Below are positions 1 through 30,996 of a stretch of 30,996 nt of DNA, in pieces. The notes below the pieces were generated by a model. That model did no database searches. It was not told the origin of the DNA and worked only from the letters and a program-made list of their open reading frames with translations. The position numbers and the translations under genes were made by a program. Each line of letters opens with the position of its first letter. The first letter of the stretch is position 1. The stretch is from Deltaproteobacteria bacterium (GTDB lineage Bacteria; SAR324; NAC60-12), in the NCBI GenBank assembly GCA_038150265.1, contig JAYOTF010000034.1, positions 1 to 30,996 on the forward strand. The letters run 5' to 3'.

Positions 1-430
1 ATAACGATACCGCCGGTGTCGTTGTCGTCGGTTACGACAACAGCTCCTCAGAGGCAGGCACGGACAACGGCAGCCTCGTGCTGCGTCTGCAAAGCCGGCC
101 GTTTGACAACGTGACGGTCTACCTGCAGCAATCCGGAGGTGCCCAGCTCGGCCTGGTCCTCAGTCCTGCCAACCTGACCTTTACCAACAGCACCAACCAC
201 TGGAATACGGCCCAGACCGTTCAGGTGACCTCGGTGGACGACTCGGTGGATGAAGGCCGCCGTGGAGTGGACAACCAGACCTTTGCGCTGTCCCTGGACA
301 ACATTACTGTCACATCGGGTGTGACGGAAGATGCCAAGTTTGTGGATAACGTCTCAGCGACTGGAAAACTGGTGGGCCTGAGTGGAGCCCTTGTGGACAA
401 CCTGACGGCCCTCAGCCTCGACAATGATAC
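1..430 (+). repeat. Intragenic module repeat, near-identical in blocks to 796-1220
   Basis: 1-105 matches 796-900 (offset 795) apart from a few synonymous changes. The blocks 'cccagaccgttcaggtgacctcggtggacgactcggtggatgaaggc' and 'tcagcgactggaaaactggtgggcctgagtgg' occur in both copies. Confidence 0.85.
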
Positions 431-3400
431 GGCTCGGGTTCGGGTCACCGTTACGGACGCTGCTGCCGCTGAGTCCGGTGACAATGCGACGATCTCGGTC
501 CGTCTCGAGAGTGAGCCCTACGACAACGTCACACTTTCGGTTCAGGACAACTCGACCCTCACGCTGATCGGGCTACAGGCGACCGATCCCACGACCCTGA
601 CCTTTGGGCCTGGAAACTGGAGCACGGCTCAGACCTTCACGCTGGTTCCGGAGGATGATGCCTATGACGAAGGGGCGTTTGGTCCCGACAATCAAAGCTT
701 CCTGATCTCCCTGAATACGGTCACGAGTGGGGATGCCCTCTACAACGGGGATAACGCGACACGCTACAGCGACAACGTGACCATTCAGGTGGAAGACAAT
801 GACACCGCCGGTGTCGTCGTTGTGGGGTATGACAACAGCTCCTCAGAGGCGGGCACGGACAACGGCAGCCTCGTGCTGCGTCTGCAAAGCCGGCCGTTTG
901 GCTCCGTCACGGTCAACCTGCAGGTGCTTGCCCCACGTGCGGATCACGCCCTGACCCTCACGCCCGACAACCTGACCTTTACCAACAGCACCGGTAACTG
1001 GAACACGGCCCAGACCGTTCAGGTGACCTCGGTGGACGACTCGGTGGATGAAGGCGCGTACGGCCTGGACAACCAGACCTTTGCGCTGGCACTGGACAAC
1101 CTGACGGCCGACAACGCCTCAGATGCCAAGTTTGTGGATACGGTCTCAGCGACTGGAAAACTGGTGGGCCTGAGTGGGGCCCTTGTGGACAACCTGACGG
1201 CCCTCAGCCTTGACAATGACACGATGGGAATCGTGGTGGTGGCAACGGACAATGCGTCAAGCGAGTCCGGAACCCTCGGCACGCTGCTTGTTCGCCTCCG
1301 GAGCCGTCCGTACGACACCCTCACTCTGGATCTGGAAGCCGATAACGGGACCCGCTCCTTCTTCGATGGCAGCTCCGTAGTCACCGGGTTGCGGCTCTCG
1401 CTGGACAACACGAGCTTCAGCCAGTCTGGGGTATCGCTGAGCTTTGACAACGGCACCGATAACTGGAGCACGGCCCAGACCATCTGGGTGCAGTCCATTG
1501 ACGACTCGGTGGACGAAGGCGTATCGGACAACCAGACCTTCCATTTCTGGCTCCGTCAGACAACGAGCAACGCGAGCGAAGACCATCTCTACGACAACAA
1601 CACGTTGGCGCAGCAGAACCTGAATCTGAATGTCCTCGGTGCGCTGACGGACAACCTGTCGCTTGTTTCCACCGACAACGACTCGGTGGGCATTCGTCTC
1701 GCCTACGGCACGAATCCGGGGGACAACGTCTCCACCGAGGCTGGCGACAACGGGAGCTTCACGGTCTACCTGAGCAGCCGTCCGCTGGACAACGTCACCC
1801 TCTTCTTCAGTGACAACGACACGACCGGCCTGAGCCTGGGCCTGACCTTCACCCCGGACAACCTGACCTTCACGGGAGCGGGAGACAACTGGACCACGGC
1901 TCAATCCATCACCTTCGGGTCCCAACCGGATTCGGTAGACGAAGGCGCCCAGGGGCCGGACAACCAGACCTTCACGGCTTGGGTGTCTCAGGTGAGCAGT
2001 GCCGATGCCCTCTACAATGGGGACAACGGCACGGCGGTCAGCGACAATCTGACGGGCCTGGTCTCCACGGACAATGACACCGTTGGCGTTCTTGTCTCAA
2101 TCAGCGATAACGTTTCGACGGAGGCTGGAGACAATGCGACCTTTACGGTCCGGCTTCAGAGCCAGCCCTATGACACCGTGACCCTGCGGGTCCAGGGCGA
2201 CAACGCCACCAGCGCCAACGGAGACTCCCTGGGCATCTGGGTCACTCCGGACAACCTGACCTTCGCCAGGAACAACTGGACTCAGCCTCAGACGGTCACG
2301 GTGGTCTCTTGGGACGACCTGGTGGATGAGGGCCTGTGGGGCGCGGACAATCAGACCTTCCTCGTCACGCTGGTCTCCAGCAGTGACAACTACTCGGCCA
2401 CTGGGATGCTTTACGACAACCTGACGGCAACGCGGTTGATCCTTGGTGGCAACGAAGTCGACAACCTCTCGTTTGTCTCCACCGACAACGACTCGGCGGG
2501 CATCCGCCTGGCTTATGGCACGAACTCGGGGGACAACGTCTCCACCGAGGCCGGTGACACCGGGTCCTTCACGGTTCGGCTCAATAGCCGTCCGCTGGAT
2601 AACGTCACGCTCTCCTTCAGTGACAACGATTCCTCTGGCCTGAGCCTGGGACTCAGCATCTCCACCCAACTCACCTTCACGGGCATTTCGGACAACTGGA
2701 GTCAGCCTCAGGCGGTGTCCTTCAGTGCCCATGAGGATGCCTATGACGAAGGCGCGTGGGGCGCGGACAACCAGACCTTCACGGTTTCGGTGGTGAACAT
2801 TGCCAGCGCCGACGCCCGTTACAACGGTGACAATGCCTCACAGGTGAGCGACAACCTGACGGGGCTGGTCGCCACCGACAACGACAGCGCCGGGGTGGTT
2901 GCAGTGCTGGACAACACGTCCAAGGAGTCTGGCGACAACGGGACCCTCACGGTCCGCCTGCGCAGCCGTCCGTTTGACAACCTGACCGTTGCCTTCTGGG
3001 CGGACAACGCCTCCGGACGGGGCGTCTTCCTGAGCCCAGATCGTTTGGCCTTTGACAACGGCACGTGGAACACCCTCCAAACCATCCAGGTGGTCTCCAA
3101 TGATGACCAGGTGGATGAAGGCACCCAGGGCCCCGGGGACAACCAGACCTTTGCGGTCCGGCTGGACGCCATCACGGTGGACAATGCGACCTGGGATGCC
3201 TTGTATGACACCACGACCGTGGCCTTCCTCAACCTGGGGAGCCTGAAGGATGCGTATGACAACAATACCTTCCTCGTGGCTTCAGAAGACAATGACACCG
3301 CTGGGCTGAACGTGACCGCGTCCGACCTCGTGGTCCGTGAGGATCACACGGATAACGCGACCCTGACGGTGACCCTGAACAGTGAGCCTGATGATAACGT

Positions 3401-6400
3401 CACGGTCTCCTTCAATTCCGACAACGTTACCTATGGCGGTGCCGCCTTCCCGGAAACCCTCACCTTTGGCCCCGGTAACTGGAGTGCCGCTCGGACGGTG
3501 ACCATTGTGGCGACCGATGACTCTGTTGATGACGGGCGAGACCTGACTGGGGACAACACTACGTTTGTCATCCGTCTGGACAACACATCCTCTGCCGGTG
3601 ACTCCAAGTACGCCCTCGGCAGTGTGGTGCTCACAGGAACGGAAACCGACAACCTGACCTTCACGGCCATTGATAACGACACTGTCGGCATCCGCCTGGT
3701 GGCCACCGACAACACTACCTCGGAAGACGGCACCGATAACGGCACCCTGACCGTGATCCTCAATAGCCAGCCCTGGCCGGGGGAAACGGTGACCGTGACC
3801 CTCAAAGGGGTGGGAAGTGACAATCTGATCGCCACCAACACGAGCTATGGCCTGAGGCTCAACAGCAGCGAACAGCCGGTACTGACCTTTGACAACAGCA
3901 GCTGGAACAGCGCGCAAACCTTAACCGTGAGCGCGTTTGATGACCAGGTTGATGAAGGATCGGTGGGACCCGATAACCAAACCTTCACGGTGGGCGTGCT
4001 GAGCTCAGCGAGCACGCTGGGGGCCGGGACCAAGTATGATAGCGACAACCTGACGACCACTTACGGCGGGACGATGACCTCTGCTGACTACTGGGTCGAA
4101 GACAATGACACAAGGGGCCTGCAGATCACCATTGCGGGTAACCCCTTTAACTTGGATAACTCAACCTTGCAGGTGTTTGACAATGGGACCTCATCTCCTT
4201 ACCGGGTGAGAGAGGATCAGTCCGACAACCTCACCGTGACGGTGGTACTGAACTCAAAACCCACCGGGAACGTGAACCTCAACTTTGAGGTGGTGGACAA
4301 TGCCACCTATCAGGCAAATGATGCGACCGGTAACCCAGAGATTTCCCTGGATACGTACTCGCTGACCTTCCGCACCACGAACTGGTCCACGCCTCAAACG
4401 GTGATTGCTTCGGCCAATGATGAGTCCTTCGACTTGGACAACAAGTCCTTGGTTGTGGCGTTCTCAAGTTCGGGAGGCACCGGCTCCTTGTACGGGGGGA
4501 ATGATGGGCTGCAGGGAGAAATCCATCTGATCAAGGTGGACAATGATACCTCCAGTGTGGTTCTGACCACTCCTGACAATGCGACGTCGGAGGATAATGC
4601 CAGCAACACAGGTACGGTTCAGATTGCCCTGACGTCACGACCGCTCTATGACATGGTTGTGAAGCTCCAGTCAGACAACACGACCGCAGGAGTGGTCTTC
4701 CCGGGTGACAACGACACGGTGGTGTTCAGCTCGGACAACTGGACCGCGCGGACGCTCACCTTCCAGGCCGTTGATGATGACTTGGATGAAGAGGCACGGG
4801 GGGCCGACAATCAGACCTTCCACCTCTCCATTCTCCGGATCTGTAGCAACACGGCAGCGGTAAACTCCAATAAAGACTCCAGTACGACCACCTTGCTGAA
4901 GCAAGTCAACGAGGAAGCCGGCTACTCCTGTACCTCTGATGCAACGGACAAGTATTCGGCCCTTCAGTCTGTTGACAGCTACACCGACAACGTCTCCGTC
5001 TGGGCTGAGGATAACGACACCGCCCAGGTCCTGTGGACGCTGGTGGGGGGCGACAATGCCACGTCTGAGGACAACGCCAGCAACACGGCGGTGATCTCTG
5101 TGGTCCTGAAGAGCCAGCCGTACGACAACACCACAGTCACCCTGCTCAGCAGTGACAACGTGACGGGCTTCACGCTCTCAGGCACCGAGCTGGTGTTTGC
5201 TCCGGACCAGTGGAACACGACCCAGTCCGTCACCCTCACGGCCGTGGATGATGCCTACGATGAAGGCGCATGGGGATTCGACAACCAGACCTTCCGGATC
5301 TTCGTGGACAACGTTACCAGCACCGATGGCCTGTATGACCTGTCGACCGCGTTAGGTAACGGAGAGGACCTGCTGGCTGCTGATAACGGCAGCGGGACCG
5401 CTGTGCTCGGACAGGACAACTTCAGCATTGCCGTGCTCGACAACGACAGCGCTGGAGTGGTGGTGGTGCTCGACAACACGTCCAGGGAGTCTGGCGACAA
5501 CGGAACCCTCACGGTCCGCTTGCGGAGCCGCCCGTTTGACAACGTGACGGTCGTCTTTACGGCCGACAATGCCTCCGGTTTGGGCGTCTACCTGAGTCCG
5601 GATAACCTGACCTTTGGCTCGGACAATGCCTCGGGCCGGGCCTGGAACCAGTCGCAGGTCATTCAGGTGGTTTCCCATGTGGATCATGTGGATGAGGGCA
5701 CCCAGGGGCGTGGCGACAACCAGACCTTTGCCGTCACCTATGACTCCACCGCTGTCGCCGATGCGTCTGCGGATGGGCTCTATGACAACACCACCCTGGC
5801 CTTCCTCAACCTGGGAAGCCTGAAGGCTGCATACGACAACAACACCTTCCTTGTGGCCTCCGAAGACAACGACACGGCCGGGTACCGCCTGGCTTATGGG
5901 GACAACGTCTCCACGGAGGCTGGCGACACCGGCTCCTTCACGGTTCAATTGACGAGCCGTCCGCTGGATAACGTCACCCTCGTCTTCAGTGACAATGATA
6001 CCTCCGGACTGGGGCTGGGCCTGACCTTTGTGCCCGATAACCTGACCTTTGACAACAGCACCGACAACTGGAGCACGGCCCTGACCGTGTCCTTCCAGGC
6101 CACCGACGATGCCTATGACGAAGGCGCGTGGGGCGTTGACAACCAGACCTTTACCGCCTTTGTCAGCAGCGTCACCAGCGTGGATCCGTTCTACAATGGC
6201 GACAATGCGAGCAACCAGGCGGACAACCTGACGGGGCTGGTCGCCACCGACAACGACAGCGCCGGGGTGGTTGCAGTGCTGGACAACACGTCCAAGGAGT
6301 CTGGCGACAACGGGACCCTCACGGTCCGCCTGCGCAGCCGTCCGTTTGACAACCTGACCGTTGCCTTCTGGGCGGACAACGCCTCCGGACGGGGCGTCTT

Positions 6401-9400
6401 CCTGAGTCCGGCCTCCCTCAGCTTTACCGACAATGCGACCAGCTGGCAAACCGATCAGGTCATCCAGGTGGTCTCCAATGACGACCAGGTGGATGAAGGG
6501 GATCAGGGCGTGGATAACCAAAGCTTTGCCGCTCGCTTGGACGCCATCACGGTGGACAACCAGTTGGATCCCCTGTATGGCGACACCACCGTGGCCTTCC
6601 TCAACTTGGGAGGCCTGAAGGAGGCGTATGACAACAATACCTTCCTCGTGGCCTCTCTGGACAACGACACCGCACAGGTGCAACTGGTCAGTCTGGGGAA
6701 CAACAGCACCAACGAGGACCTCAGCGACAATGATACCTTCTCAATTGTCCTGACCGCGCAGCCGCGGGGCACCGTGACCGTTCACCTCCTTAGCAGTGAT
6801 AATGCAACTGGAGGGGACGTGCTGCCAGACAACCGGTCCCTGACCTTTAGTGGAACCAACTGGAGCCAGGCGCAGACCGTGACCGTCACGGCCGCCCAGG
6901 ACTTCATTGATGAGGGGTTGCAAACAACCTTTGACATCTCCATTGACAATGTCACCAGTGACAATGCCTCTGACATGTACGCCCAGACTGCGCTTCTGGA
7001 CAACAAGTCGCTGTTTAGTGGTGGGACGGACAGTCTGACCCTGACTGCGGTGGACAACGACACCATTGGCATCACCCTGACTCGGGTCGGAGGGGACAAC
7101 ACCACCTCGGAGGGGGGAGACAACGCCACCTTCACGGTGACCCTGAACAGTGAGCCGCGGGGTAACGTGACCCTCACACTCGGAGACAATGATACCTCGG
7201 GTCGAAACCTGGGGCTGGCTCTGAGCCCGGATAACCTGACCTTCACATCAAGTGACTGGAACACGCCGCAGACGGTAACGGTCTCCGCTCAGGATGACTC
7301 GGTTGATGAGGGCGTGAGGGGGCCGGACAACCAAACCTTCCTGGTCTCGGTGACAAGCCTCAGCGGCCCTAGCGGTTATGAGTACGAAAGCCTGTCATAT
7401 TTCACAGCGCGTGGGGGACAGGCGGACAACCTGACCTTCCTGGCCGAAGACAACGACACTGCCGCCGTTCGCTGGAAGCTGGTTGACGGAAGTGCCACAG
7501 AGGCAGGGGACCAGGCTTCCATCCTGGTGTACCTGACGAGTGCGCCGACTGATGGAGACAACGCCACCGCAGTGGATAACGTCACCGTTAACCTGAGCAG
7601 CAGCGACAACACGACCGGCTTCAACCTGGTCTGGAACGGCACCAGTGCCTTGACCCAGGCCCTGACGTTCGACAGCTCTGCTAACAACTGGAGCACGGGG
7701 CAAACGGTCACCCTGGTGGCCGTGGATGACGCCTACGATGAAGGAGCGCTTGGAGCCGACAACCAGTCCTTCCTCATCCAACTCGTCAGCACCAGCTCAG
7801 CGGATGCGCTGTATGACAACGCCTCCAGGCCTCTTGAAGGCGATAACGGCACCGGTACCTTCACTGCGGGTCTGGATAACTTCACCATTCAGGTCCTGGA
7901 CAATGACACGGCAGGCCTCGTCCTGACGGTCAACGCCTCTGACAACGCCTCCAAGGAGTCTGGCGACAATGGCACGATCCAGGTCCGGCTGCAGAGCCGC
8001 CCGTGGGACAATGTGACCACGACCTGGACTGCGGACAACGCGACCGTCACTCTGGCAGACGGGACGGAGGTGCCGACCGGACTGTTCCTCAGCCCCACCA
8101 CGCTGACCTTCGGAACCGATAACTGGAGCAGCGTCCAGACCCTGACGGTGGCCTCCTACGTCGATCACCTCAGTGAAGGGGCTCCGGGAGTCGACAACCA
8201 GACCTTCAACGTCTGGCTGGTCGCCTCCGACAATACCAGCAGTCAGGATGGACTCTATGACAACAACAGCCTGGGCCTGAGTCTGGGAGGAGCCCTGGTG
8301 GATAACGTCAGCATGGCCTCTCTGGACAACGACAGCGCCGGGGTCCTCTGGAGCTTCACGGACAACTTCACCCGAGAAGACAACGCCACGGACAACGGCA
8401 CCTTCGTGATCCGCCTCCGTTCCCGGCCGCACGACAACCTCACCGTTGCCCTCCGCGTCCAGAACATCCTGGCGGAAGATGGCTCGGATCCCGTGGATAC
8501 CGAGGTGACCTTCGACAACACGACGGTCGCCTTCTCCACCGTGGCGCAGTTCACGTCCTCCAACTGGAATCAGGACCAAACCGTGACCTTCTGGGCCATT
8601 GACGACAACGTGGACGAGAACACCCTCGGACCGGATAATCACACCGTGACCCTGTTCGTGGACAACGTCACCGCTGACAATGCCAGCACCGATGAGCATT
8701 ACGTCTACGACGCGGTCAACAACCGCAGCTTTGGGGTGGATAACCTCACCGCCGAGGTGGCCGACAATGATACGGCTGGAATTGCGTTGAGCTGGGCAAC
8801 GGACAATCAAACTACCGAGGCCGGTGGTACCGCTACGGTGAGCGTCCGTTTGAAGTCTCGCCCTTTCTTGTCAGACGGTTCATCCATCACCGCCCTCTTG
8901 AAAATCAATGGTGGCCTCCAGGGGAACGCTTATCTGCGAAGACCTGCAAATGCGACACTCCTTAGCTTGGGACCGAATCTGGGTGATTCATTTAAAGATG
9001 GTGACTTGGGCTTCTATGGATATGTCGAGCTCCCTGTTTTAACGTGGAACTCTTTTTCCTCTCCTCAAACAATTGTTGGTCTGGATAACCTGATCGACGA
9101 TGGTGACCAGGTGAGTAAGGTAAGTGCTTCAGTGAACCTGGCTGTGAGTAGCACAAACTTCAACAAAACGGATCCTATCTATGCTTCACTCATCGGTGAT
9201 AATGTCTCCAGCGAGTTGACCTTCACGAACGTGGACAACGAAACCACGCTTGCGATGGTCCTCTCCAAAACGAGTGTGAGCCCGTCTGAGAATGGCACAA
9301 CGGACAACTTCACAGTGGTCCTCAACCAGCGCCCAGGTGACAACCTCACGGTGACGTTCAGTGACAACTTCACCTACTCCAATGAGATTGGAGGGTTGAG

Positions 9401-10457
9401 CGATCTGCACTTCGAGACAACAGGGCAGGATAACTACACGGTCACGGTCCAAGGCTCATCAATCGTAGTGACAGCAACTCCCACCGGAACCTGGGGCACG
9501 CCTCAGACGGTGGTCGTGACGGCGGTCGATGACAACCGGTCCGATGGCGACCAGACGGCGACGTTGACGCTTTCGGAAGCCAACGGCGGGGTGGACAACG
9601 CCACGGTGTCCGTGACCACGGTGGATGATGAACCGGCTGCAGGAGTGGTCTACAGCTGGCTCAACAGCGACAACTTCACGGCTGAAGGGGGGCAAGCCGC
9701 CGAGCTGCTCATCAACCTGACCAGCTCACCCTTCAATCAGGGGACAGGTGCCGGAGACAACGCGACGGTGTTCCTCAACGTCCGTGGCAAGGACAACCAC
9801 TCGGTGTCCTTCAGCTCCGATAACCTGACCTTCACGTCGACCGACTGGAGCACGCAGCAGACGGTGACAGTGACCGCCGTAGACGATCACTACGATGAAG
9901 GGGTGAATGGCTCCGATAATCAGAGTTACCAGATCTACATCGACAATGTCACCAGCGGCGACTCCGTCTATGCGGCTGTGACCGCCTTCACGGGTCCGGA
10001 TAAGGCGACGGTTGTTGTTGAGGACAATGACCTGGCTGGCATCGGTGTGGAACTGATTGCCAACCAGTCGGATAACACGACCTTTGCCCTCAACGTCTTC
10101 CTCCTGTCGCAGCCGACGGATAACGGGACGGTTACGGTCAGCTTGACTGGGTTCGGAGCCAACACGCGCTTTGACAATGCCAGCGACCTGACAACGGCTG
10201 CGGCGACTCGGGACTTGACCCTGACCTGGGCCGACAACGCCACCGTTTATCTGACCAATACCAGTCAGAATCTGGATAACGAGTCCGATGACGATGACGG
10301 CATCAGTGACGGCTGGACGCTCTTCAGCTTCTCCGGGACGGCCACAGCCGGTGATGCAAACTACAATGGCAAGCAGATCGCCAAGACGCTGATCCGGGAC
10401 GTGAACACCGGCGCCATCTACACGGACTTTGACAATGGAACCTCTTTGCCGAAGTAA
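3..10457 (+). CDS. Giant repetitive surface protein/adhesin, 5'-partial (>3480 aa), ~25 tandem Calx-beta/cadherin-like modules, D/N/T/S/V-rich
   Basis: The frame is open from base 3 (NDTAGVVVVGYDNSSSEAGTDNGSLVLRLQ), so the GTG at 78 is internal and the true start lies upstream of the window. Modules recur as E.GD..T..V.L.S.P...V...LTF...NW...Q.V.V...DD..DEG...DNQTF and end in DND(T/S)xG. This resembles Calx-beta-like Ca-binding beta-sandwich repeats of large secreted proteins. Stop TAA at 10455-10457. Confidence 0.85.
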   Translation, partial: NDTAGVVVVGYDNSSSEAGTDNGSLVLRLQSRPFDNVTVYLQQSGGAQLGLVLSPANLTFTNSTNHWNTAQTVQVTSVDDSVDEGRRGVDNQTFALSLDNITVTSGVTEDAKFVDNVSATGKLVGLSGALVDNLTALSLDNDTARVRVTVTDAAAAESGDNATISVRLESEPYDNVTLSVQDNSTLTLIGLQATDPTTLTFGPGNWSTAQTFTLVPEDDAYDEGAFGPDNQSFLISLNTVTSGDALYNGDNATRYSDNVTIQVEDNDTAGVVVVGYDNSSSEAGTDNGSLVLRLQSRPFGSVTVNLQVLAPRADHALTLTPDNLTFTNSTGNWNTAQTVQVTSVDDSVDEGAYGLDNQTFALALDNLTADNASDAKFVDTVSATGKLVGLSGALVDNLTALSLDNDTMGIVVVATDNASSESGTLGTLLVRLRSRPYDTLTLDLEADNGTRSFFDGSSVVTGLRLSLDNTSFSQSGVSLSFDNGTDNWSTAQTIWVQSIDDSVDEGVSDNQTFHFWLRQTTSNASEDHLYDNNTLAQQNLNLNVLGALTDNLSLVSTDNDSVGIRLAYGTNPGDNVSTEAGDNGSFTVYLSSRPLDNVTLFFSDNDTTGLSLGLTFTPDNLTFTGAGDNWTTAQSITFGSQPDSVDEGAQGPDNQTFTAWVSQVSSADALYNGDNGTAVSDNLTGLVSTDNDTVGVLVSISDNVSTEAGDNATFTVRLQSQPYDTVTLRVQGDNATSANGDSLGIWVTPDNLTFARNNWTQPQTVTVVSWDDLVDEGLWGADNQTFLVTLVSSSDNYSATGMLYDNLTATRLILGGNEVDNLSFVSTDNDSAGIRLAYGTNSGDNVSTEAGDTGSFTVRLNSRPLDNVTLSFSDNDSSGLSLGLSISTQLTFTGISDNWSQPQAVSFSAHEDAYDEGAWGADNQTFTVSVVNIASADARYNGDNASQVSDNLTGLVATDNDSAGVVAVLDNTSKESGDNGTLTVRLRSRPFDNLTVAFWADNASGRGVFLSPDRLAFDNGTWNTLQTIQVVSNDDQVDEGTQGPGDNQTFAVRLDAITVDNATWDALYDTTTVAFLNLGSLKDAYDNNTFLVASEDNDTAGLNVTASDLVVREDHTDNATLTVTLNSEPDDNVTVSFNSDNVTYGGAAFPETLTFGPGNWSAARTVTIVATDDSVDDGRDLTGDNTTFVIRLDNTSSAGDSKYALGSVVLTGTETDNLTFTAIDNDTVGIRLVATDNTTSEDGTDNGTLTVILNSQPWPGETVTVTLKGVGSDNLIATNTSYGLRLNSSEQPVLTFDNSSWNSAQTLTVSAFDDQVDEGSVGPDNQTFTVGVLSSASTLGAGTKYDSDNLTTTYGGTMTSADYWVEDNDTRGLQITIAGNPFNLDNSTLQVFDNGTSSPYRVREDQSDNLTVTVVLNSKPTGNVNLNFEVVDNATYQANDATGNPEISLDTYSLTFRTTNWSTPQTVIASANDESFDLDNKSLVVAFSSSGGTGSLYGGNDGLQGEIHLIKVDNDTSSVVLTTPDNATSEDNASNTGTVQIALTSRPLYDMVVKLQSDNTTAGVVFPGDNDTVVFSSDNWTARTLTFQAVDDDLDEEARGADNQTFHLSILRICSNTAAVNSNKDSSTTTLLKQVNEEAGYSCTSDATDKYSALQSVDSYTDNVSVWAEDNDTAQVLWTLVGGDNATSEDNASNTAVISVVLKSQPYDNTTVTLLSSDNVTGFTLSGTELVFAPDQWNTTQSVTLTAVDDAYDEGAWGFDNQTFRIFVDNVTSTDGLYDLSTALGNGEDLLAADNGSGTAVLGQDNFSIAVLDNDSAGVVVVLDNTSRESGDNGTLTVRLRSRPFDNVTVVFTADNASGLGVYLSPDNLTFGSDNASGRAWNQSQVIQVVSHVDHVDEGTQGRGDNQTFAVTYDSTAVADASADGLYDNTTLAFLNLGSLKAAYDNNTFLVASEDNDTAGYRLAYGDNVSTEAGDTGSFTVQLTSRPLDNVTLVFSDNDTSGLGLGLTFVPDNLTFDNSTDNWSTALTVSFQATDDAYDEGAWGVDNQTFTAFVSSVTSVDPFYNGDNASNQADNLTGLVATDNDSAGVVAVLDNTSKESGDNGTLTVRLRSRPFDNLTVAFWADNASGRGVFLSPASLSFTDNATSWQTDQVIQVVSNDDQVDEGDQGVDNQSFAARLDAITVDNQLDPLYGDTTVAFLNLGGLKEAYDNNTFLVASLDNDTAQVQLVSLGNNSTNEDLSDNDTFSIVLTAQPRGTVTVHLLSSDNATGGDVLPDNRSLTFSGTNWSQAQTVTVTAAQDFIDEGLQTTFDISIDNVTSDNASDMYAQTALLDNKSLFSGGTDSLTLTAVDNDTIGITLTRVGGDNTTSEGGDNATFTVTLNSEPRGNVTLTLGDNDTSGRNLGLALSPDNLTFTSSDWNTPQTVTVSAQDDSVDEGVRGPDNQTFLVSVTSLSGPSGYEYESLSYFTARGGQADNLTFLAEDNDTAAVRWKLVDGSATEAGDQASILVYLTSAPTDGDNATAVDNVTVNLSSSDNTTGFNLVWNGTSALTQALTFDSSANNWSTGQTVTLVAVDDAYDEGALGADNQSFLIQLVSTSSADALYDNASRPLEGDNGTGTFTAGLDNFTIQVLDNDTAGLVLTVNASDNASKESGDNGTIQVRLQSRPWDNVTTTWTADNATVTLADGTEVPTGLFLSPTTLTFGTDNWSSVQTLTVASYVDHLSEGAPGVDNQTFNVWLVASDNTSSQDGLYDNNSLGLSLGGALVDNVSMASLDNDSAGVLWSFTDNFTREDNATDNGTFVIRLRSRPHDNLTVALRVQNILAEDGSDPVDTEVTFDNTTVAFSTVAQFTSSNWNQDQTVTFWAIDDNVDENTLGPDNHTVTLFVDNVTADNASTDEHYVYDAVNNRSFGVDNLTAEVADNDTAGIALSWATDNQTTEAGGTATVSVRLKSRPFLSDGSSITALLKINGGLQGNAYLRRPANATLLSLGPNLGDSFKDGDLGFYGYVELPVLTWNSFSSPQTIVGLDNLIDDGDQVSKVSASVNLAVSSTNFNKTDPIYASLIGDNVSSELTFTNVDNETTLAMVLSKTSVSPSENGTTDNFTVVLNQRPGDNLTVTFSDNFTYSNEIGGLSDLHFETTGQDNYTVTVQGSSIVVTATPTGTWGTPQTVVVTAVDDNRSDGDQTATLTLSEANGGVDNATVSVTTVDDEPAAGVVYSWLNSDNFTAEGGQAAELLINLTSSPFNQGTGAGDNATVFLNVRGKDNHSVSFSSDNLTFTSTDWSTQQTVTVTAVDDHYDEGVNGSDNQSYQIYIDNVTSGDSVYAAVTAFTGPDKATVVVEDNDLAGIGVELIANQSDNTTFALNVFLLSQPTDNGTVTVSLTGFGANTRFDNASDLTTAAATRDLTLTWADNATVYLTNTSQNLDNESDDDDGISDGWTLFSFSGTATAGDANYNGKQIAKTLIRDVNTGAIYTDFDNGTSLPK
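2850..3034 (+). repeat. 185-bp exact direct repeat, copy 1 (copy 2 at 6222-6406)
   Basis: Base-by-base comparison shows identity from gacaacctgacggggctggtcgcc to ggcgtcttcctgag. The tract spans a module boundary. Confidence 0.92.
6222..6406 (+). repeat. 185-bp exact direct repeat, copy 2 (copy 1 at 2850-3034)
   Basis: Identical to 2850-3034 at offset 3372. A third, diverged copy lies at about 5440-5600. Confidence 0.92.
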
Positions 10458-13144: not shown

Positions 13145-14158
13145 ATGGCCGATCAGATTCTGAGCGCGTTTACGGCCGTTTTCTTAGGTGTGGGAGCCTG
13201 CCTGTTTTACTTTTGGGGCAGCAACTTCCTGCTGGACCGCCTCCTGGCCGACCGGTCTGGCGCAGGCGGACACGTCATCAGCCGTGACGCGCAGCGCGAT
13301 GCCATTCGCCCCTGGCTCTTCATCCTTCCGGCAGCGTCCATCCTGTTCGTTTACCTCATCTACCCCGTTTATGAAACCGTTCGCCTGAGCTTCTACGACT
13401 CCATCGGAGAGAACTTCGTGGGGTGGAGCAACTACTCCTGGGCGGTCAGCAATCCCCAGCTGGTACAGGCCATTGGCAACAATGCCCTCTGGCTGGTGGT
13501 GGTGCCGTCGCTGAGTGTGGCCTTTGGACTGCTGGTGGCAGTTCTGGCGGACCGTGTCTGGTGGGGAACAGCAGCCAAGTCACTGATCTTCATGCCCATG
13601 GCGATCAGCTTTGTCGGAGCAAGTGTGATCTGGAAATTCGTGTACGACTACCGGGCGGCAGGGAGCGACCAGATTGGCATCCTCAACGCTGTGGTGGTGG
13701 CCCTCGGAGGCGAGCCCCAGACCTGGATCAGCCTGCCGTTCTGGAACAACCTCTTCCTGATGGTCATCCTCGTCTGGATCCAGACGGGCTTTGCCATGGT
13801 CATCTTCAGTGCGGCCCTGCGTGGGGTTCCGGAAGAGACCCTGGAGGCGGCTCGCATTGATGGCGCCAACGAGGTGCAGATCTTCTTCAAGATCATGATC
13901 CCGCAGATCATGAGCACCATTGTGGTGGTCTGGACCACCATCACCATCATTGTCCTCAAGATCTTTGACATCGTGCTTGCCATGACCAATGGGCAGTGGG
14001 GAACCGAAGTGCTGGCCAACATGATGTACAACTGGATGTTCCGGGGCGGAGGCGATTCCGGACGGAGCAGCACCATTGCCATTTTCATCATGATTGCCGT
14101 CATTCCGATCATGATCTGGAACATCAAGAAATTCCGTGAAGAGGAGAAGGCCCGATGA
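13145..14158 (+). CDS. aglF: Alpha-glucoside ABC transporter permease
   Basis: Multiple TM segments, EAA loop ([14 protein letters not shown]), [29 protein letters not shown] upstream. Confidence 0.88.
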
Positions 14159-15306
14159 AGATTCCTGTCCTCAAGATGACCCCCGGACGCCTGCTCACGC
14201 ACATCGGACTCCTGACCCTGGTCCTGATGTGGATCCTCCCCACCGTGGGCCTGCTGGTCAGCTCCTTCCGAGACAAGGATCAGCTTGCAGCAACCGGTTG
14301 GTGGACGGCGCTTTCCACGTCTCAGCAAAATGGCCAGGGCCGCACGGCTGCCGCAGACGAAATGGTGGCAGCAAACGGGCAGTACGTCATCTCCGGCAAC
14401 CTGCTCGAAAAACCGGGCCAGACGATCCTGACCTTCAACACCAACTTCCGGGACCTCAGCGCCTACCAGGCTGGGGAAACCATGGCGCTGAAGGACGGCA
14501 GCCGCCTCACGGTGGAAGCCGACGGCGCCTACCGCTGGGAGGCGGACCAGCCCATTGAGGCCAAACGCGGAAAGCGGATCTTCTTTGTCGCAGAGACGCC
14601 GCCGATGTTTACGATCTCCAACTACATTGAGGTCCTCAACTCCGAAGGCATCGGCCAGTCGTTCATCAACACCTTCGTGGTCACCATTCCGGCCACCATC
14701 ATTCCGATTGCCATTGCCGCCTTTGCCGCCTATGCCTTTGCGTGGATGGAGTTTCCCGGAAGGCAGGTGCTGTTTGTCGTGGTGGTGGGCCTGCTGGTGG
14801 TGCCGCTGCAGATGTCACTGATTCCTCTGCTGCGCATGTACAACACGATCGGGGAGTTCTTTGACGCGGCCTCGAAGTCGTATCCCGGCATCTGGCTCGC
14901 ACACACCGGGTTTGGCCTGCCGATGGCCATTTACTTGCTTCGGAACTACATGGGCACCTTGCCCAAGGACATCATTGAGTCTGCCCGGATGGACGGTGCC
15001 ACCCACTTCCAGATCTTCACGAAGCTCGTGGTGCCGCTTTCGGTGCCCGCGCTGGCCTCGTTTACCATCTTCCAGTTCCTCTGGGTGTGGAACGACCTGC
15101 TGGTGGCCCTCGTCTTCCTGGGCAAGTCGGACGATCAGATTGTGCTGACCTCGAAGATGCGCGAGCTACTGGGGTCTCGGGGAGACAACTGGGAAATCCT
15201 CACCAGCAGCGCCTTCATTTCCATCCTGGTGCCCCTCATCGTCTTCTTTGCGCTCCAGCGTTACTTCGTCCGTGGACTGGTGGCCGGTTCCGTGAAGGGG
15301 GGGTGA
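14155..15306 (+). CDS. aglG: Alpha-glucoside ABC transporter permease
   Basis: ATGA overlap with aglF, EAA loop ([13 protein letters not shown]), [34 protein letters not shown], and the large extracytoplasmic insertion typical of AglG. Confidence 0.88.
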
Positions 15307-22997: not shown

Positions 22998-24937
22998 GGC
23001 CCCCCGCTCATCCGGAGCGCGCTGCGCTCAGCCTGAACCGCCTCCAGCCCCGTTGGCAGCAGCGGTTCCTGCAGTTGCCTCAGGCCACAGACGCCCGCTG
23101 GCACGAGCTGTGGGCCCGGACGGAAGCACAATTTCCGCGTTTCTTTTCCCTCTTCCATGCGCTCTACGGGGAGCGTTACGACTTCTTCTACCACCTCGAA
23201 GAAGCAGTCTTTGACGCCCTGCAAGCGGGTCTGAACCGCTCCACGGACCTGCAGCAGCTCGATCAGGCGCGGCTGGCCAATCCACGCTGGGCGCAGGAGC
23301 CACGCATGCTGGGCGCCTCCGGATATGCCGACCTTCAGGCCGGCGGACTCTCGGGCATCCGTCAGCAAATCCCCTACTATCAGGAACTGGGGCTGACCTA
23401 CCTGCACCTGATGCCCCTCTTTGCCCGTCCAGACGGCGAGAACGATGGCGGCTATGCGGTCAGCAGCTACCGAGACGTCCACCCTCCGCTGGGAACGATG
23501 GCCGATTTGCAGCAGCTTGCCGAGGAACTCCGGGAGGCTGGGATCAGCCTGGTGGTGGACTTCATCTTCAATCACACCGCTCACGATCACGAATGGGCCC
23601 AGCGCGCCCAGGCGGGAGATCCGGAGTTTCAGGCGTACTACTGGTTGTTGGACGAGGAAGCCGAAGTGCAGGCCTGGCAGCAGCACCTGCGTCTGATCTT
23701 TCCCGACCGCGGCGGGAGCTTCACCTGGTGTGAGTCTGCCCGGAAGTGGGTGTGGACAACCTTCTTCGAGTTTCAGTGGGACCTCAACTACAGCAACCCG
23801 GCGGTCTTCCGGAGCATGCTGGGCGAGATGCTCTTTCTGGCCAACCAGGGAGTCGAGATCCTGCGCATGGACGCGGTGGCCTTCATCTGGAAGCGCCTGG
23901 GGACCGACTGCGAAAACCAGCCGGAAGCACACTGGATCCTCCAGGCCTACAACGCCCTGTGTGCCATTGCGGCGCCGTCTCTGCTGTTGAAATCGGAAGC
24001 CATTGTGCATCCGGATGAAGTCGCCCGCTACATCCGCCCGGATGAGTGCCGCCTGAGCTACAACCCGCTCCTGATGGCCCTGCTGTGGGAGGCGTTGGCC
24101 ACCCGGGACACGCGCCTCCTGAGTGCCTCCATGCGGGCGCGCTTTCCCATTGACCCCGAATGCGTGTGGGTGAATTACCTCCGCTGTCACGACGACATCG
24201 GCTGGACCTTTGATGATGCGATTGCCGCAAAGCTGGGCATCGATGGCGCCGGTCACCGACGCTTCCTCAACGACTTCTACACCGGACGCTTCTCGGGAAG
24301 CTTTGCCCGTGGGCTGCCGTTTCAGGAGAACCCCCTCACCGGCGACGCTCGCATTTCCGGAACCCTCGCCTCGTTGGCAGGGGTGGAAGCCGCACTGGCG
24401 GCCGATGACTCGGCGGCGCTGGAGATGGCTCTGCAGCGCATCCTCATGCTCTACGGCATCATCCTCAGCATTGGCGGCCTCCCGCTCCTGTACCTGGGAG
24501 ACGAGACCGGCATGCTCAACGACTACTCCTACGTTCAGGATCCGACACACGCCGAAGACAGCCGGTGGGCACACCGTCCACAGCGGGACTGGGACGCGGA
24601 ATCCGCCTTGCTCCGGAATCCGGAATCGTATGCTGCTCGCCTGCGTCGTGGCCTGGGGGAGCTGATTCAGCGACGCCAGACCCTGCCCTTTCTGGCAGAA
24701 GGCCCAACCGCGTTTCCGGAAGTGGGCAATGCCCATGTCTTCGCCTATCAACGCCGCAGCACCGCCGGAAACTTTCTCGCCCTCTGCAACTTCACGGAGC
24801 GTCCGCAGCCCCTCACCGCCAATGCCCTGCGGCTCCTCGGCTTCTCCGGAACCGTGACCGATGTGTGGGCGGAGGAGCCCCTGCCGCTTGCCTCCGGGCT
24901 CCTGCTGCGTCCCTACCAAACCCGCTGGCTGACCTGA
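22994..24937 (+). CDS. Amylosucrase / sucrose hydrolase (GH13_4)
   Basis: Start reassigned to ATG 22994 (ATGA overlap with the MFS stop). GH13_4 signatures: GLTYLHLMPLF, DGGYAVSSYR, DFIFNHT, QWDLNYSNP, RMDAVAFIWK, KSEAIVHP, YLRCHDDIGWTF, RISGTLASLAG, DSRWAHRP. Confidence 0.9.
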   Translation: MRPPAHPERAALSLNRLQPRWQQRFLQLPQATDARWHELWARTEAQFPRFFSLFHALYGERYDFFYHLEEAVFDALQAGLNRSTDLQQLDQARLANPRWAQEPRMLGASGYADLQAGGLSGIRQQIPYYQELGLTYLHLMPLFARPDGENDGGYAVSSYRDVHPPLGTMADLQQLAEELREAGISLVVDFIFNHTAHDHEWAQRAQAGDPEFQAYYWLLDEEAEVQAWQQHLRLIFPDRGGSFTWCESARKWVWTTFFEFQWDLNYSNPAVFRSMLGEMLFLANQGVEILRMDAVAFIWKRLGTDCENQPEAHWILQAYNALCAIAAPSLLLKSEAIVHPDEVARYIRPDECRLSYNPLLMALLWEALATRDTRLLSASMRARFPIDPECVWVNYLRCHDDIGWTFDDAIAAKLGIDGAGHRRFLNDFYTGRFSGSFARGLPFQENPLTGDARISGTLASLAGVEAALAADDSAALEMALQRILMLYGIILSIGGLPLLYLGDETGMLNDYSYVQDPTHAEDSRWAHRPQRDWDAESALLRNPESYAARLRRGLGELIQRRQTLPFLAEGPTAFPEVGNAHVFAYQRRSTAGNFLALCNFTERPQPLTANALRLLGFSGTVTDVWAEEPLPLASGLLLRPYQTRWLT

Positions 24938-25025: not shown

Positions 25026-26003
25026 ATGGAACAACAGAAGCCCGTCTCTCAGGCTCCCGCAGCGGTGGTCCCGGCCACTCCCGACCCCCGGGAAGCCGAA
25101 TTTGAGGCTCGGATTGCGCGAGGAGAGAAGATTGAGCCCAAGGACTGGATGCCGGAGCGGTACCGTCGGCAGTTGGTCCGGATGATGGCTCAGCACGCCC
25201 ATTCCGAGGTGGTGGGCATGCTTCCGGAAGGGAACTGGATCACCCGGGCTCCATCGTTGCGGCGCAAGATGGGCCTGCTGGCAAAGGTGCAGGACGAAGG
25301 CGGTCACGGCCTCTACCTCTACTGTGCTGCCGAGACGCTGGGGGTGGACCGGGCGGACCTCGTGGACGAGCTGCTGGAAGGCAAGGCCAAGTACTCGAGC
25401 ATCTTCAACTACCCGACCCTGACGTGGGCGGATATCGGGGTGATTGGCTGGATTGTCGACGGAGCCGCCATTGTCAACCAAACGATGCTGGCAAAGGGCT
25501 CCTATGGCCCCTATGCCCGGGCGATGGTCCGGGTGTGCAAGGAAGAGAGCTTCCACAAGAAGCAGGGCTACGAGATGGTGACCGCGCTGGCACAAGGAAC
25601 GCCGGAGCAGAAGCAGATGGTGCAGGACGCCCTGAACCGCTGGTGGTGGCCGTCGCTGATGATGTTTGGCCCGCATGACCAGCAATCCAGCAATTCTGAT
25701 GAGTTGATGCGCTGGAGGGTGAAGCTGCAAAGCAACGACACGCTCCGCCAGCGTTTTGTCAACCAAACCGTCAATCAGGCCCGGGCCATTGGCCTGACCC
25801 TTCCGGATCCGGATCTGTGCTTCAATGAAGAAACCGGAAACTGGGAATTCGGGGCCATCGACTGGGCTGAGTTCAAACGGGTCCTGAACGGCCAGGGGCC
25901 GTGCAACCGCGATCGCCTTCGGGCCCGTCGCAAGGCCCATGAAGAAGGGCGCTGGGTCCGGGAGGCCGCGCTGGCGTATGCTGAAAAACATCAGGTCAAT
26001 TGA
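25026..26003 (+). CDS. paaA: 1,2-phenylacetyl-CoA epoxidase, catalytic subunit A
   Basis: [36 protein letters not shown], di-iron ligands QDEGGHG and [27 protein letters not shown]. Confidence 0.96.
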
Positions 26004-26014: not shown

Positions 26015-26302
26015 ATGGAAGCCACTGCTGATCGCTGGCCCGTTTGGGAAGTCTTTGTGCAGGAGAAGAGCGGTGCGCCGCATGAGCACGCCGGGAGTGT
26101 GCATGCTCCGGATGCGACCCTGGCGTTGCAGAATGCCCGAGACACCTATGCCCGTCGGTCCGGATGCAGCCTCTGGGTGGTGCCGTCGGAGGCCATCACG
26201 GCGAGCACCCCGGAAGACAGCCCGATGCTGTTTGACTCGATTGCCGACAAGGTTTACCGCCACCCGCAGTTTTACAAGATCCCCCGCAGCGTGAGGCTCT
26301 GA
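26015..26302 (+). CDS. paaB: 1,2-phenylacetyl-CoA epoxidase subunit B
   Basis: WPVWEVF, HAGSVHAPDATLALQNARDTYARR, SLWVV, KVYRHPQFY. ATG 26015 follows RBS AGGAGG. Confidence 0.93.
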   Translation: MEATADRWPVWEVFVQEKSGAPHEHAGSVHAPDATLALQNARDTYARRSGCSLWVVPSEAITASTPEDSPMLFDSIADKVYRHPQFYKIPRSVRL

Positions 26303-27072: not shown

Positions 27073-27557
27073 GCGCTGCAGACTTTCCGGAAGGGGCTCC
27101 TCCAGCGCCTTCCGAGGCCGGGGTCTGGGAGCTGCTGGAAGCCGTGCCTGATCCGGAGATTCCAGTGGTCAGCATTGTGGACTTGGGAATCGTCCGGAAG
27201 GTGGAGTGTGCAGGCGCAGCCGTGACGGTGACCCTGACTCCGACCTATTCCGGCTGCCCGGCAACCCGCGCGATTGAGCAGTCGGTCCGGGAGCAGCTGC
27301 AGACTCACGGCATCGAGGCTGCTCTGAAGACGACTTTTTCCCCTCCCTGGACCACCGATTGGATCCGTCCGGCTGCCCGGGAGCGTCTCAAGGCATACGG
27401 CATCAGTCCGCCAGAACGCCGACGGGGGCCCCTGCCCTGCCCCTTTTGCGAGTCACTGGAAACGCAACTCCAGAGTGAGTTCGGCTCCACCCCCTGCAAG
27501 GCCCTGCACCGCTGCAAGAGCTGCCTCCAGCCCTTTGAACAATTCAAGTGCGTTTAA
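27069..27557 (+). CDS. paaD: 1,2-phenylacetyl-CoA epoxidase subunit D (PaaD/PaaJ, SufT-like domain plus Cys motif)
   Basis: VPDPEIPVVSIVDLGIVR, TPTYSGCPA, PPWTTDWI, CPFC...FGSTPCKALHRCKSCLQPFEQFK. GTGA overlap with paaC. Confidence 0.93.
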   Translation: MSAADFPEGAPPAPSEAGVWELLEAVPDPEIPVVSIVDLGIVRKVECAGAAVTVTLTPTYSGCPATRAIEQSVREQLQTHGIEAALKTTFSPPWTTDWIRPAARERLKAYGISPPERRRGPLPCPFCESLETQLQSEFGSTPCKALHRCKSCLQPFEQFKCV

Positions 27558-29766: not shown

Positions 29767-29834
29767 GGATTGATCATTCGTGGCGTTCATGAAATAAGTA
29801 AGCCCCAAAGCGCTAACTTGCCCAAGGATGATTC

Positions 29835-30996
29835 ATGAAGTTAAGACCATTCCTCTCCGCCTTGGTGATTGGAGTTTTGCTCTACTCCTTTCCCGCCCAA
29901 TCGGCCAGCCGCATCAACAGCACGGTTCTCAAAGGGATTGTCGATCGCTTCGTCTCCATTCACTATGCGCAGACGCCTCTGAATGATGAGATTTCGCAGA
30001 AGACTTTTCATAATTACCTGACGCGCCTGGACCCCGGACACTACTACTTCCTCGAGTCGGATGTGGCGGAGTTCCAGAAGTACGAGCTGGAGCTCGATGA
30101 CCAACTCAAGCGCGGAGATGGCAGCTTTGCCGATGTGGTCTTCTCGCGCTTCAAGACCCGCCTGTCGGAGCGGCTGGAGGCCCTGGAATCGTTTGGTCCG
30201 GATGAGTTTGACTTCAGCAAGGACGACGAGTGGCAGATCGACCGCAAGGAAGCCCCCTACCCCAAGGATGAGGCCGAAGCCGAGCAGGTGTGGCGGACGA
30301 AGGTCAAGTTTGACATGCTCACGCTCAAACTGGCCGGCAGCACGCTGGAAGAAGGTCACGAGCGCCTCGTCAAGCGCATCCGGGGCCTCTGGAAGGACTA
30401 CTCGCAGTATGACGACGACGATGTCCAGTCGATGCTCATCAACGCCCTGACGGCCGCCTACGACCCGCACTCCTCCTACCTGCCGCAGCAGGAACTCCAG
30501 ACCTTTGACATTCAGATCAAGCTTTCGCTGGAAGGCATTGGGGCGGTCCTCCGCTGGGAAGATGGCTACACGGTTGTCAACTCCATTGTTCCGGGAGGCG
30601 CTGCTGCCCGTCATGGCAAGCTCAAGGTGGAAGACCGGATCATTGCCGTGGGGCAGGGCGACGAGCCGTTTGAGAGCGTCATTGACATGCGCCTCAACGA
30701 TGTTGTGCAGCTCATCCGGGGCGAGCGTGGAACCAAGGTTCGGCTGCAGGTGCTCCGGAAGAGCGAAAAGGGCTTTGACACCCTGACCTTTGCCATCATC
30801 CGAGATCGAGTGGTGCTCAAGGACGGAGAAGCCAAGGCCGAGGTATTTAGCCCACAGGCCAACGCGGAGAAGGGCCCGGAAGCCTACCGCATCGGGGTCA
30901 TTGAGTTGCCGTCCTTTTATGTCGATTTCAACGACCGGCGCAAGAACCCCCGGAACTACAAAAGCTCGTCCCGTGACGTCATGCAGCACCTGGAGG
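29835..30996 (+). CDS. prc: Carboxy-terminal processing (tail-specific) protease, S41A, 3'-partial
   Basis: Absent from the ORF track because it has no stop in the window. Manual translation from ATG 29835 (RBS AAGGA) gives signal peptide MKLRPFLSALVIGVLLYSFPAQSA, then HYAQTPLNDEIS, YLTRLDPGHYYFL, YDPHSSYL, LSLEGIGAVL, a PDZ segment (IVPGGAA...EDRIIAVGQG...DVVQLIRGERGTKVRLQV) and IGVIELPSFYVDF. Confidence 0.92.
   Translation, partial: MKLRPFLSALVIGVLLYSFPAQSASRINSTVLKGIVDRFVSIHYAQTPLNDEISQKTFHNYLTRLDPGHYYFLESDVAEFQKYELELDDQLKRGDGSFADVVFSRFKTRLSERLEALESFGPDEFDFSKDDEWQIDRKEAPYPKDEAEAEQVWRTKVKFDMLTLKLAGSTLEEGHERLVKRIRGLWKDYSQYDDDDVQSMLINALTAAYDPHSSYLPQQELQTFDIQIKLSLEGIGAVLRWEDGYTVVNSIVPGGAAARHGKLKVEDRIIAVGQGDEPFESVIDMRLNDVVQLIRGERGTKVRLQVLRKSEKGFDTLTFAIIRDRVVLKDGEAKAEVFSPQANAEKGPEAYRIGVIELPSFYVDFNDRRKNPRNYKSSSRDVMQHLE

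Follow-up and report, generated by a model that had tools for sequence, protein, structure and literature searches.

The hexameric palindrome TCCGGA was characterized in a window of 30,996 bp, that is, the whole stretch of DNA that was analysed (G000:C34:1-30996), and throughout its source genome, G000, which comprises 3,393,712 bp in 87 contigs, with 61.3% GC and a completeness of 97.8%. The enrichment of this word is a DNA-level property, independent of reading frame and coding status, and its helically phased spacing shows that TCCGGA copies as far as one to a few hundred bp apart are "seen" jointly on the duplex. As a tentative explanation, which is given somewhat less than an even chance, TCCGGA would be a selected recognition word for a putative self-associating DNA-binding protein.

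An earlier reading of the window, made from the sequence only, had counted about 70 sites (72 by hand) against about 10 expected. Exact string search returned 72 sites, the first at position 132 and the last at 30759, and 100 dinucleotide-preserving shuffles of the window gave a mean of 11.06 sites (standard deviation 3.13, maximum 22), with 0 of 100 reaching 72. All three codon phases were represented, with 19 TCC GGA, 16 xTC CGG Axx and 37 xxT CCG GAx (sums over the rows for single open reading frames (ORFs), in which two sites within overlapping ORFs enter twice). The examples given earlier for the three frames, at 132 (TCC GGA), 647 (xxT CCG GAx) and 1297 (xTC CGG Axx), all in ORF 3-10457, were correct.

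Genome-wide, 9,711 TCCGGA sites were found in G000, one per 350 bp, and the word ranked first among all hexamers both by count and by observed/expected ratio (O/E). The O/E was 8.7 from mononucleotide composition and 7.6, 3.95, 2.39 and 1.22 under Markov models of order 1, 2, 3 and 4, respectively; the second-ranked palindrome, CTGCAG, reached 3.15. The signal did not reduce to CCGG (O/E 1.36) or TCCGG (O/E 3.11), a check that had been proposed earlier. In the table of NCCGGN words the two flanking letters interacted, given CCGG, with a derived odds ratio of about 2.0, and the unit is therefore the whole hexamer. A motif longer than TCCGGA was rejected, as the flanks add at most 0.08 bit per position.

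Genes were called with our own crude iterative codon-model caller (2,557 genes, 2.88 Mb; some real genes were missed), and they contained 1,996 TCC GGA, 2,299 xTC CGG Axx and 4,169 xxT CCG GAx sites. Within-gene synonymous-codon shuffles, which preserve the protein sequence and codon usage of each gene, yielded 2,031 ± 34 sites (20 replicates) versus 8,464 observed, an excess of 4.17-fold overall and of 3.9-, 3.2- and 5.2-fold in the three phases, in the same order. Codon-order shuffles (20 replicates) gave 1,230 expected sites, which were exceeded 6.9-fold, and with both flanking dicodons held fixed the O/E was still 1.34 and 1.61. The most over-represented dicodon of G000 was TCC-GGA (5.88-fold), followed by NNT-CCG pairs, which are pieces of TCCGGA. 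The order-4 Markov and dicodon nulls absorb most of the hexamer signal because they contain five of its six letters, and values near 1 arise solely for this reason; the excess thus survives control for codon and dicodon usage and for shorter-word bias. Unassigned segments shorter than 200 bp (54% GC) showed an O/E of 7.3-7.6.

The word occupied 8,464 of the 20,535 amino-acid contexts that permit it (41%). Ser-Gly dipeptides were spelled TCCGGA in 33.7% of cases versus 8.1% expected, and the share of GGA among Gly codons was 69% after TCC, 42% after TCT and 16-25% after TCG, TCA, AGC or AGT. The distribution along the genome was almost even (632 windows of 5 kb, mean 14.5, variance 16.5, none empty). 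Site-free "foreign" islands were rejected, since the lowest 5-kb window held 3 sites and the longest gap was within chance. By tenths of gene length, 603 sites fell in the first tenth, about 880 in each of the middle tenths and 779 in the last.

The histogram of distances between TCCGGA copies in G000 oscillated, with peaks near 31, 42, 52, 63, 73, 84, 94, 105 and 114 bp. The spacing spectrum peaked at 10.45-10.5 bp with a power of 57-59; among the 521 hexamers with enough pairs the runner-up reached 12.6, the 99th percentile was 8.7 and the median 3.3. Relative amplitude fell from 0.32 at 12-100 bp to 0.15 at 100-200 bp and to 0.11 at 200-300 bp; the phasing was gone beyond about 400 bp. It was seen in every distance class modulo 3 and had an amplitude of 0.16-0.17 for the 1,729 pairs not within one called gene versus 0.18 for same-gene pairs.

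Three possible sources of the phasing were tried and rejected. Repeats did not account for it (898 of 936 contexts were distinct, from 77 contigs), nor did local duplication (flank identity 0.347 for in-phase versus 0.334 for random pairs) or protein periodicity, since the permissive contexts themselves gave a power of 5.6. When occupancy was reshuffled among contexts of the same class in 200 trials, the mean power was 4.1 and the maximum 12.45, versus 54.4 observed. As the permissive contexts are not periodic and the occupancy shuffles are flat, the phasing is written in synonymous codon choice. No base or dinucleotide oscillation was found around TCCGGA sites (relative amplitude at most 0.02), and the hexamer itself is therefore the phased entity. 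Among nine pairs of one-letter neighbours only CCCGGA/TCCGGG was in phase with TCCGGA (power 14.2, amplitude 0.065), and twelve other palindromes showed no cross-phasing with it.

Relative to the occupancy-shuffle null, pairs were scarce at 11-16 bp (ratio 0.16-0.31), with a mean ratio of 0.56 over 12-30 bp. Beyond 30 bp the ratio swung between about 0.5-0.7 and 1.26-1.52, with peaks near 30.5, 42, 52, 62, 72, 84 and 95 bp, and 30-31 bp was the first clearly favoured spacing genome-wide. This profile looks like a footprint combined with a preference for one face of the helix.

The sites and site pairs located in the window are the following:

132..30759: TCCGGA array, 72 sites, 2.32 per kb, across the window genes (string search and per-gene counts)
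1266..1302: site pair, 31 bp apart (three helical turns), inside the giant ORF
6390..9994: longest interval without TCCGGA in all of G000, 3,611 bp from one site to the next, in the giant ORF
24612..24624: site pair, 7 bp apart (starts 24612 and 24619), TCCGGAATCCGGA
25802..25813: abutting site pair, 6 bp apart (starts 25802 and 25808), TCCGGATCCGGA
26107..26164: site pair, 52 bp apart (five turns), in the non-coding spacer between two PaaA/PaaC genes
27152..27198: site pair, 41 bp apart (four turns), in PaaD

The tandem copies described earlier near 24612 and 25802 are thus real. The pair at 26107..26164 comprises the sole window sites outside every listed ORF. TCCGGA was present in 16 of the 17 listed ORFs and missing from one ABC permease (14155-15306); the giant ORF had 1.2 per kb, and the maximum, reached in PaaD, was 6.1 per kb. 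The gap of 3,611 bp is within chance (expected longest gap about 3,208 bp; probability of such a gap 0.27). Gene content in the window was ordinary: a sugar ABC transporter, GlgB, GlgP, alpha-amylases, an MFS transporter, PaaA, PaaC and PaaD, TetR, an enoyl-CoA hydratase, a hydrolase and a partial tail-specific protease. The giant ORF (3-10457, forward strand; 3,484 aa, open at the contig start) had zero Pfam matches; TCCGGA occurs in it at 1.24 per kb, roughly half of the average for G000, and the longest site-free gap of the genome lies within it. The window sequence was found in estuary and aquatic metagenome runs, and RNA runs were absent among those listed.

To determine which lineages carry the word, TCCGGA was counted against the reversed control AGGCCT in 45 genomes of the family, in 12 genera (genera are labelled g and genomes G; relatives share kinship and their counts are not independent). 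It was enriched in 8-9 of the 12 genera and absent as a signature from the rest. Ratios of TCCGGA to the control were as follows:

g1 (genus of G000): 3.9-5.9-fold
g11: 6-32-fold in most of 18 genomes, 1.6-fold in three incomplete genomes
g19: 14-30-fold
g4: 3-8-fold
g6: 4.5-4.7-fold
g3: 3.8-fold
g10: 2.6-fold
g7: 1.8-2.5-fold
g9: 1.4-fold
g8: 1.2-fold
g5: 0.9-fold
g2: about 1.0-fold in all nine genomes (g2, g5 and g8 together, 0.8-1.2-fold)

In the sister family, where TTCCGGAA alone was counted in 8 genomes, five were unremarkable (0.9-2.4-fold) and three depleted. In this sister family, which belongs to the same order, the 3.0-Mb genome G017 contained TTCCGGAA 6 times versus 199 for the reversed control, a strong avoidance that looks as if a restriction system targeted the word there. 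Among the papers listed by the literature search, none treated TCCGGA as a genome signature, and no paper pairing SAR324 with TCCGGA turned up.

The phase of the spacing was compared among relatives by whole-genome pair counts at 41-43 versus 46-48 bp, to which windows of 31-33 and 36-38 bp were added. Results are given for the four windows in order of distance, or for the two longer windows where two numbers are listed:

G000: 96, 64, 129 and 52 pairs; whole turns
G001 (congener of G000): 20, 63, 22 and 57 pairs; half turns
G002 (congener of G000): 42, 44, 67 and 39 pairs; whole turns, weak
g19 (G050, G051 and G052 summed): 14, 159, 17 and 148 pairs; half turns
g11 (summed): 512 and 160 pairs; whole turns
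g4 (summed): 57 and 22 pairs; whole turns

The spectrum of G021 (g11, 43.4% GC, O/E 8.5) had a period of 10.3-10.45 bp, an amplitude of 0.97 and a phase near 0°, and that of G051 (g19, 56.7% GC, O/E 7.6) a period of 10.25-10.45 bp, an amplitude of 0.55 and a phase of -140° to -172°, with spacing peaks at 27, 38, 47, 59, 68, 77 and 89 bp. The observed power was reached by 0 of 500 block shuffles in each of the two. In samples of 400-800 kb the spectra of G001 and G002 were not significant (power reached by 27 and 34 of 500 shuffles, respectively), so the phase of these two genomes rests on the whole-genome window counts. Phasing is thus conserved across genera of differing GC content, and its register differs by lineage, even between the congeners G000 and G001.

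Turnover of sites was assessed in alignments of G000 with G002 (82% nucleotide identity, 62% at third positions) and with G001 (74% and 53%, respectively). In aligned DNA, 499 of 1,117 G000 sites (45%) were common to G002 and 484 of 1,623 (30%) to G001. Where the four non-third positions were identical in the G002 comparison, TCCGGA was kept at 0.50, 0.69 and 0.49 in the three phases versus 0.42 for other hexamers, and its ranks by phase (236 of 578, 84 of 557 and 238 of 561) do not make it an outlier; conservation at synonymous positions, to which the earlier reading had pointed as a check, was therefore not above that of control hexamers. Single-letter differences lay mostly at the outer letters and were chiefly T/C exchanges: 149 of 344 (43%) with G002 and 329 of 555 (59%) with G001, where one third is expected by position. 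Density and phase of TCCGGA are maintained while individual sites are replaced.

Candidate agents were sought among methylases, nucleases and competence genes. In G000 no PF00145 C5 methylase, no Vsr (PF03852) and no PF02384 or PF07669 methylase was found. The genome carries two PF01555-type methylases of N4/N6 type with an SPPY motif, whose specificity is not readable from the sequence. The first (on contig C45) has 258 aa and lies between a retron-type reverse transcriptase and an ORF without family assignment, in locus L001 (G000:C45:1404-5096), with these ORFs in locus coordinates:

35-1444: reverse transcriptase, matching the NCBIfam retron St85 family (E-value 4e-59)
1441-2217: SPPY methylase, 258 aa
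2224-3159: ORF of 311 aa

This methylase was rejected as the agent, being confined to G000 and G001. The retron locus looks like an accessory defence locus, yet its TCCGGA density is normal.

The second methylase was vertically inherited in the family and is order-wide, with 49 of 64 genomes carrying it, including genomes without the TCCGGA signature or depleted in the word. It shows weak similarity to DNA cytosine-N4 methylases. Its orthologues are located as follows:

L038:451-2643: orthologue of G002
L002 (G000:C51): orthologue of G000
L039-L042 and L163-L178: further orthologues

These proteins share a conserved RR(S/A)ASQ motif, and in some genera they bear a highly charged repeat tail of 150-370 aa, with EDRPRR repeats in g1 and DSKYKGGRD repeats in g11. 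In motif IV the residue before PPY varies within g19 (C, N or R), and g3 has TAPPA. The charged N-terminal tail measures 264-368 aa in g1, 196-223 in g19, 143-210 in g11, 99 in g9, 55 in g2 and 44 in g5. Its length seemed to track the strength of the signature within the family; the second methylase was nevertheless dropped as the agent, as long frames also occur in genomes that lack TCCGGA or in which it is depleted.

Next to the two methylases, nothing resembling a nuclease gene was recognised. Searches for the Cfr10I/Bse634I and NgoMIV families gave no match, a weak negative because the controls were silent as well. ComEC was present in every one of the 12 genera, whether they carry the signature or not, and was rejected for lack of co-variation. 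The transition neighbours of the word were not depleted (TCTGGA/TCCAGA, O/E 2.57; TTCGGA/TCCGAA, O/E 1.34). As for the orphan methyltransferase or Vsr-like endonuclease proposed in the sequence-only reading, neither a C5-type enzyme nor Vsr was detected in G000, and the two N4/N6-type methylases do not follow the signature across relatives. With the deamination neighbours at undiminished frequency, methylation-directed repair also received no support.

A scan of viral contigs identified some phage records rich in TCCGGA, at host-like density. The complete phage record G065 (110,271 bp, 66.8% GC; L294-L299, behind L222) contained 364 copies, 3.3 per kb, evenly spread; TCCGGA was its top hexamer (O/E 9.7), with 0 AGGCCT and 399 GCCGGC. 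G065 and G000 were linked by no blastn match and no shared methylase. The viral record G064 (249 kb, behind L194) contained 88 TCCGGA, mostly at 9- or 18-bp steps near 74-79 kb; this cluster is probably a tandem-repeat gene and not a genome-wide signature.

To our knowledge, highly iterated palindromes (HIPs) have posed an unsolved problem for three decades and were known essentially from cyanobacteria. Like HIP1 (GCGATCGC) and the alternate HIPs, TCCGGA is a short GC-rich palindrome and the most over-represented word of its length, frame-independent, found in coding and non-coding DNA, lineage-wide with exceptions, deviating at its outer letters and of unproven function. HIP1 is an octamer of cyanobacteria, whereas TCCGGA is a hexamer of a non-cyanobacterial, uncultured lineage. 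According to the HIP literature cited here, a cognate methylase accompanies each HIP word and single-letter deviations from HIP1 are biased to the outer letters (Elhai 2015, PMC4390886), HIP1 sites are conserved between genomes and show a periodicity of 10-90 kb (Xu et al. 2018, PMC5861425), natural transformation of Synechococcus 7002 increases with methylated HIP1 (bioRxiv 10.1101/2024.09.10.611283), and HIP1 abundance correlates with type IV secretion system (T4SS) proteins (PMC13756078). In contrast, no methylase tracks TCCGGA, its sites are not conserved above controls and its phasing is at 10.45 bp. HIP1 pairs at 41-43 versus 46-48 bp numbered 18:26, 57:56, 54:45 and 66:39 in four cyanobacterial genomes (sum 195:166), that is, no phasing of the strength of TCCGGA in these two 3-bp windows. 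The description of TCCGGA as a HIP1-like, frame-independent signature of the lineage holds, given its three phases, its intergenic O/E, its presence in synonymous choice and its occurrence in most genera; the mechanism is unproven.

The DNA uptake sequence (DUS) of Neisseria, the uptake signal sequence (USS) of Pasteurellaceae and Chi are genome-wide, evenly spread, lineage-specific self words, about one per 0.3-1 kb. TCCGGA is likewise a genome-wide, even and lineage-specific short word of similar density; those words, however, are asymmetric 8-12-mers (Chi being strand-oriented) with known readers, and no reader was found for TCCGGA. We know of no helical phasing between DUS, USS or Chi copies. 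In Escherichia coli, Dcm and Vsr act on CCWGG, a methylated palindrome that a process at the DNA level makes more frequent, with a small effect. Their footprint is accompanied by depletion of the T-containing neighbour, by a C5 methylase and by Vsr, none of which was found when looked for in G000. SeqA reads paired hemimethylated GATC on one face of the helix, and looping by LacI, AraC and lambda CI is phase-dependent. The likeness to TCCGGA lies in proteins whose cooperative binding varies with how two copies of a short palindrome are rotated relative to each other, the protein geometry setting the phase, but these proteins act at origins, at operators or behind the fork, with no 8-fold genome-wide excess and no whole-genome phasing. 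TCCGGA is also the recognition site of the type II restriction enzymes BspEI, AccIII and Kpn2I; a host usually avoids its restriction targets, whereas TCCGGA is the commonest hexamer in G000.

Under the preferred explanation, an abundant putative protein would read TCCGGA on duplex DNA genome-wide, probably as a symmetric dimer contacting neighbouring bound copies. Selection would keep the word dense, with about one copy per 350 bp and 41% of the protein-permitted places filled, and would hold adjacent copies to a set rotational relationship even as single sites are gained and lost; the whole- or half-turn phase would reflect the geometry of the protein assembly. We infer the protein reader, the contact between bound neighbours and the setting of phase by assembly geometry from the exclusion zone and the lineage-varying rotational preference, for which a symmetric self-associating DNA-binding protein would be the simplest agent. 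The phase of protein-mediated DNA looping depends on geometry, and a lineage-specific phase thus fits a reader with an evolving assembly geometry. Nucleoid protein binding, one of the mechanisms offered by the sequence-only reading, gains most from the helical phasing.

Several results weigh against this explanation. No reader or writer was found, and no methylase, restriction enzyme or other examined gene tracks the signature. The phage record G065 carries the word at 3.3 per kb without significant helical phasing, so enrichment and phasing may have separate causes. The enrichment itself may have arisen by mutation or repair. In G002, the phasing is weak (109 versus 83 pairs over the four windows; its 400-kb spectrum was reached by 34 of 500 shuffles). 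Individual sites are not conserved beyond control words in the G002 comparison; if selection operates, it must therefore do so on density and phase, for which proof is more difficult to obtain.

A by-product of codon, dicodon and amino-acid usage and of shorter-word bias has a negligible probability and is already contradicted by the data of this analysis. The maximal-order Markov O/E of just 1.22, the dicodon-conditioned values (1.34 and 1.61) and permissive peptides about 1.65 times commoner than under codon-order shuffling (2,031 versus 1,230) speak for it, but short non-coding segments are equally enriched, the excess over synonymous shuffles is 4.17-fold, the top dicodon biases (TCC-GGA, NNT-CCG) are pieces of TCCGGA, the phasing sits in which permissive contexts are occupied, and relatives with orthologous proteins lack the signature or are opposite in phase. 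Biased repair, uptake or recombination, DNA mechanics and defence could each account for the enrichment; neither the phasing nor its inversion would be expected under any of them. If intrinsic mechanics were responsible, TCCGGA would be flexible or bent, and its phased placement would tune curvature or supercoiling without a dedicated reader. The period equals the helical repeat (10.3-10.45 bp), the decay extends over about one to two persistence lengths, and bends would sum at whole-turn spacing and cancel out at half-turn spacing, so that two "rules" are conceivable. A mechanical code, however, is expected to be degenerate, and no W/S (weak/strong) or dinucleotide periodicity was found around sites, 1 of 521 hexamers was phased, and cross-phasing was missing in twelve palindromes and in 8 of 9 neighbour pairs; this cause is regarded as quite improbable.

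Methylation-coupled biased mismatch repair, Elhai's model for HIP1, in which TCCGGA or CCGG would be methylated and short-patch repair would convert near-cognates, is considered unlikely. HIP words come with cognate methylases (PMC4390886), G000 encodes two SPPY methylases of N4/N6 type, the outer-letter bias of ortholog differences (149 of 344 and 329 of 555) is as in HIP1, and CCCGGA/TCCGGG is the sole neighbour word in phase with TCCGGA (power 14.2). Yet G000 is without C5 methylase and Vsr and its transition neighbours are not depleted (2.57 and 1.34), one methylase is confined to G000 and G001 while the other is order-wide and includes non-signature genomes, and the model predicts neither 10.45-bp phasing nor a phase that differs between congeners. 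Just as unlikely is a self mark that stimulates DNA uptake or recombination, DUS/USS- or Chi-like, as now proposed for HIP1. The HIP1 transformation study (bioRxiv 10.1101/2024.09.10.611283) and the T4SS correlation (PMC13756078) favour it, as do the near-even spread, the normal density at the accessory retron locus, the complete phage records with TCCGGA at host-like density and the ComEC encoded in G000. ComEC, however, does not discriminate because it is found in all 12 genera, and signals read during translocation explain no helical phasing, no exclusion at 11-16 bp and no lineage-specific phase. Defence marking, in which a two-site looping nuclease or surveillance system would treat the density or geometry of TCCGGA as self, has a slimmer chance than any of these except usage. 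Phage records with host-like density fit mimicry of such a mark, and the avoidance of TTCCGGAA in G017 (6 versus 199) implies that systems acting on the word exist in the order; still, restriction targets are normally avoided and TCCGGA is enriched, no candidate system was located, and no Cfr10I/Bse634I or NgoMIV match was obtained in searches that had no positive control.

A bolder extension of the recognition-word explanation, which we hold to be doubtful, is a sequence-addressed bacterial chromatin, in which an abundant putative protein would sit on TCCGGA about every 350 bp and stack on or bridge its neighbours, with a co-evolved rotational code that would have switched between whole and half turns at least twice in the family, following changes in assembly geometry. 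If true, this would make TCCGGA, perhaps together with other words of the HIP type, the first specific DNA word organising a whole bacterial nucleoid. What is new with respect to HIP1, as far as the limited test extends, is a helix-locked spacing that lies in synonymous codons and differs in register between close relatives; the HIP-like palindrome occurs here in an uncultured lineage unrelated to cyanobacteria. The phasing turns the question of why the word is so common into testable ones concerning its binder, its methylation and the genes that distinguish whole-turn from half-turn genomes. At four in ten permissive positions, a code at the level of DNA can prevail over codon choice, a result relevant to models of codon usage, to binning and taxonomic signatures, and to predicting the hosts of phages in which the word is shared.

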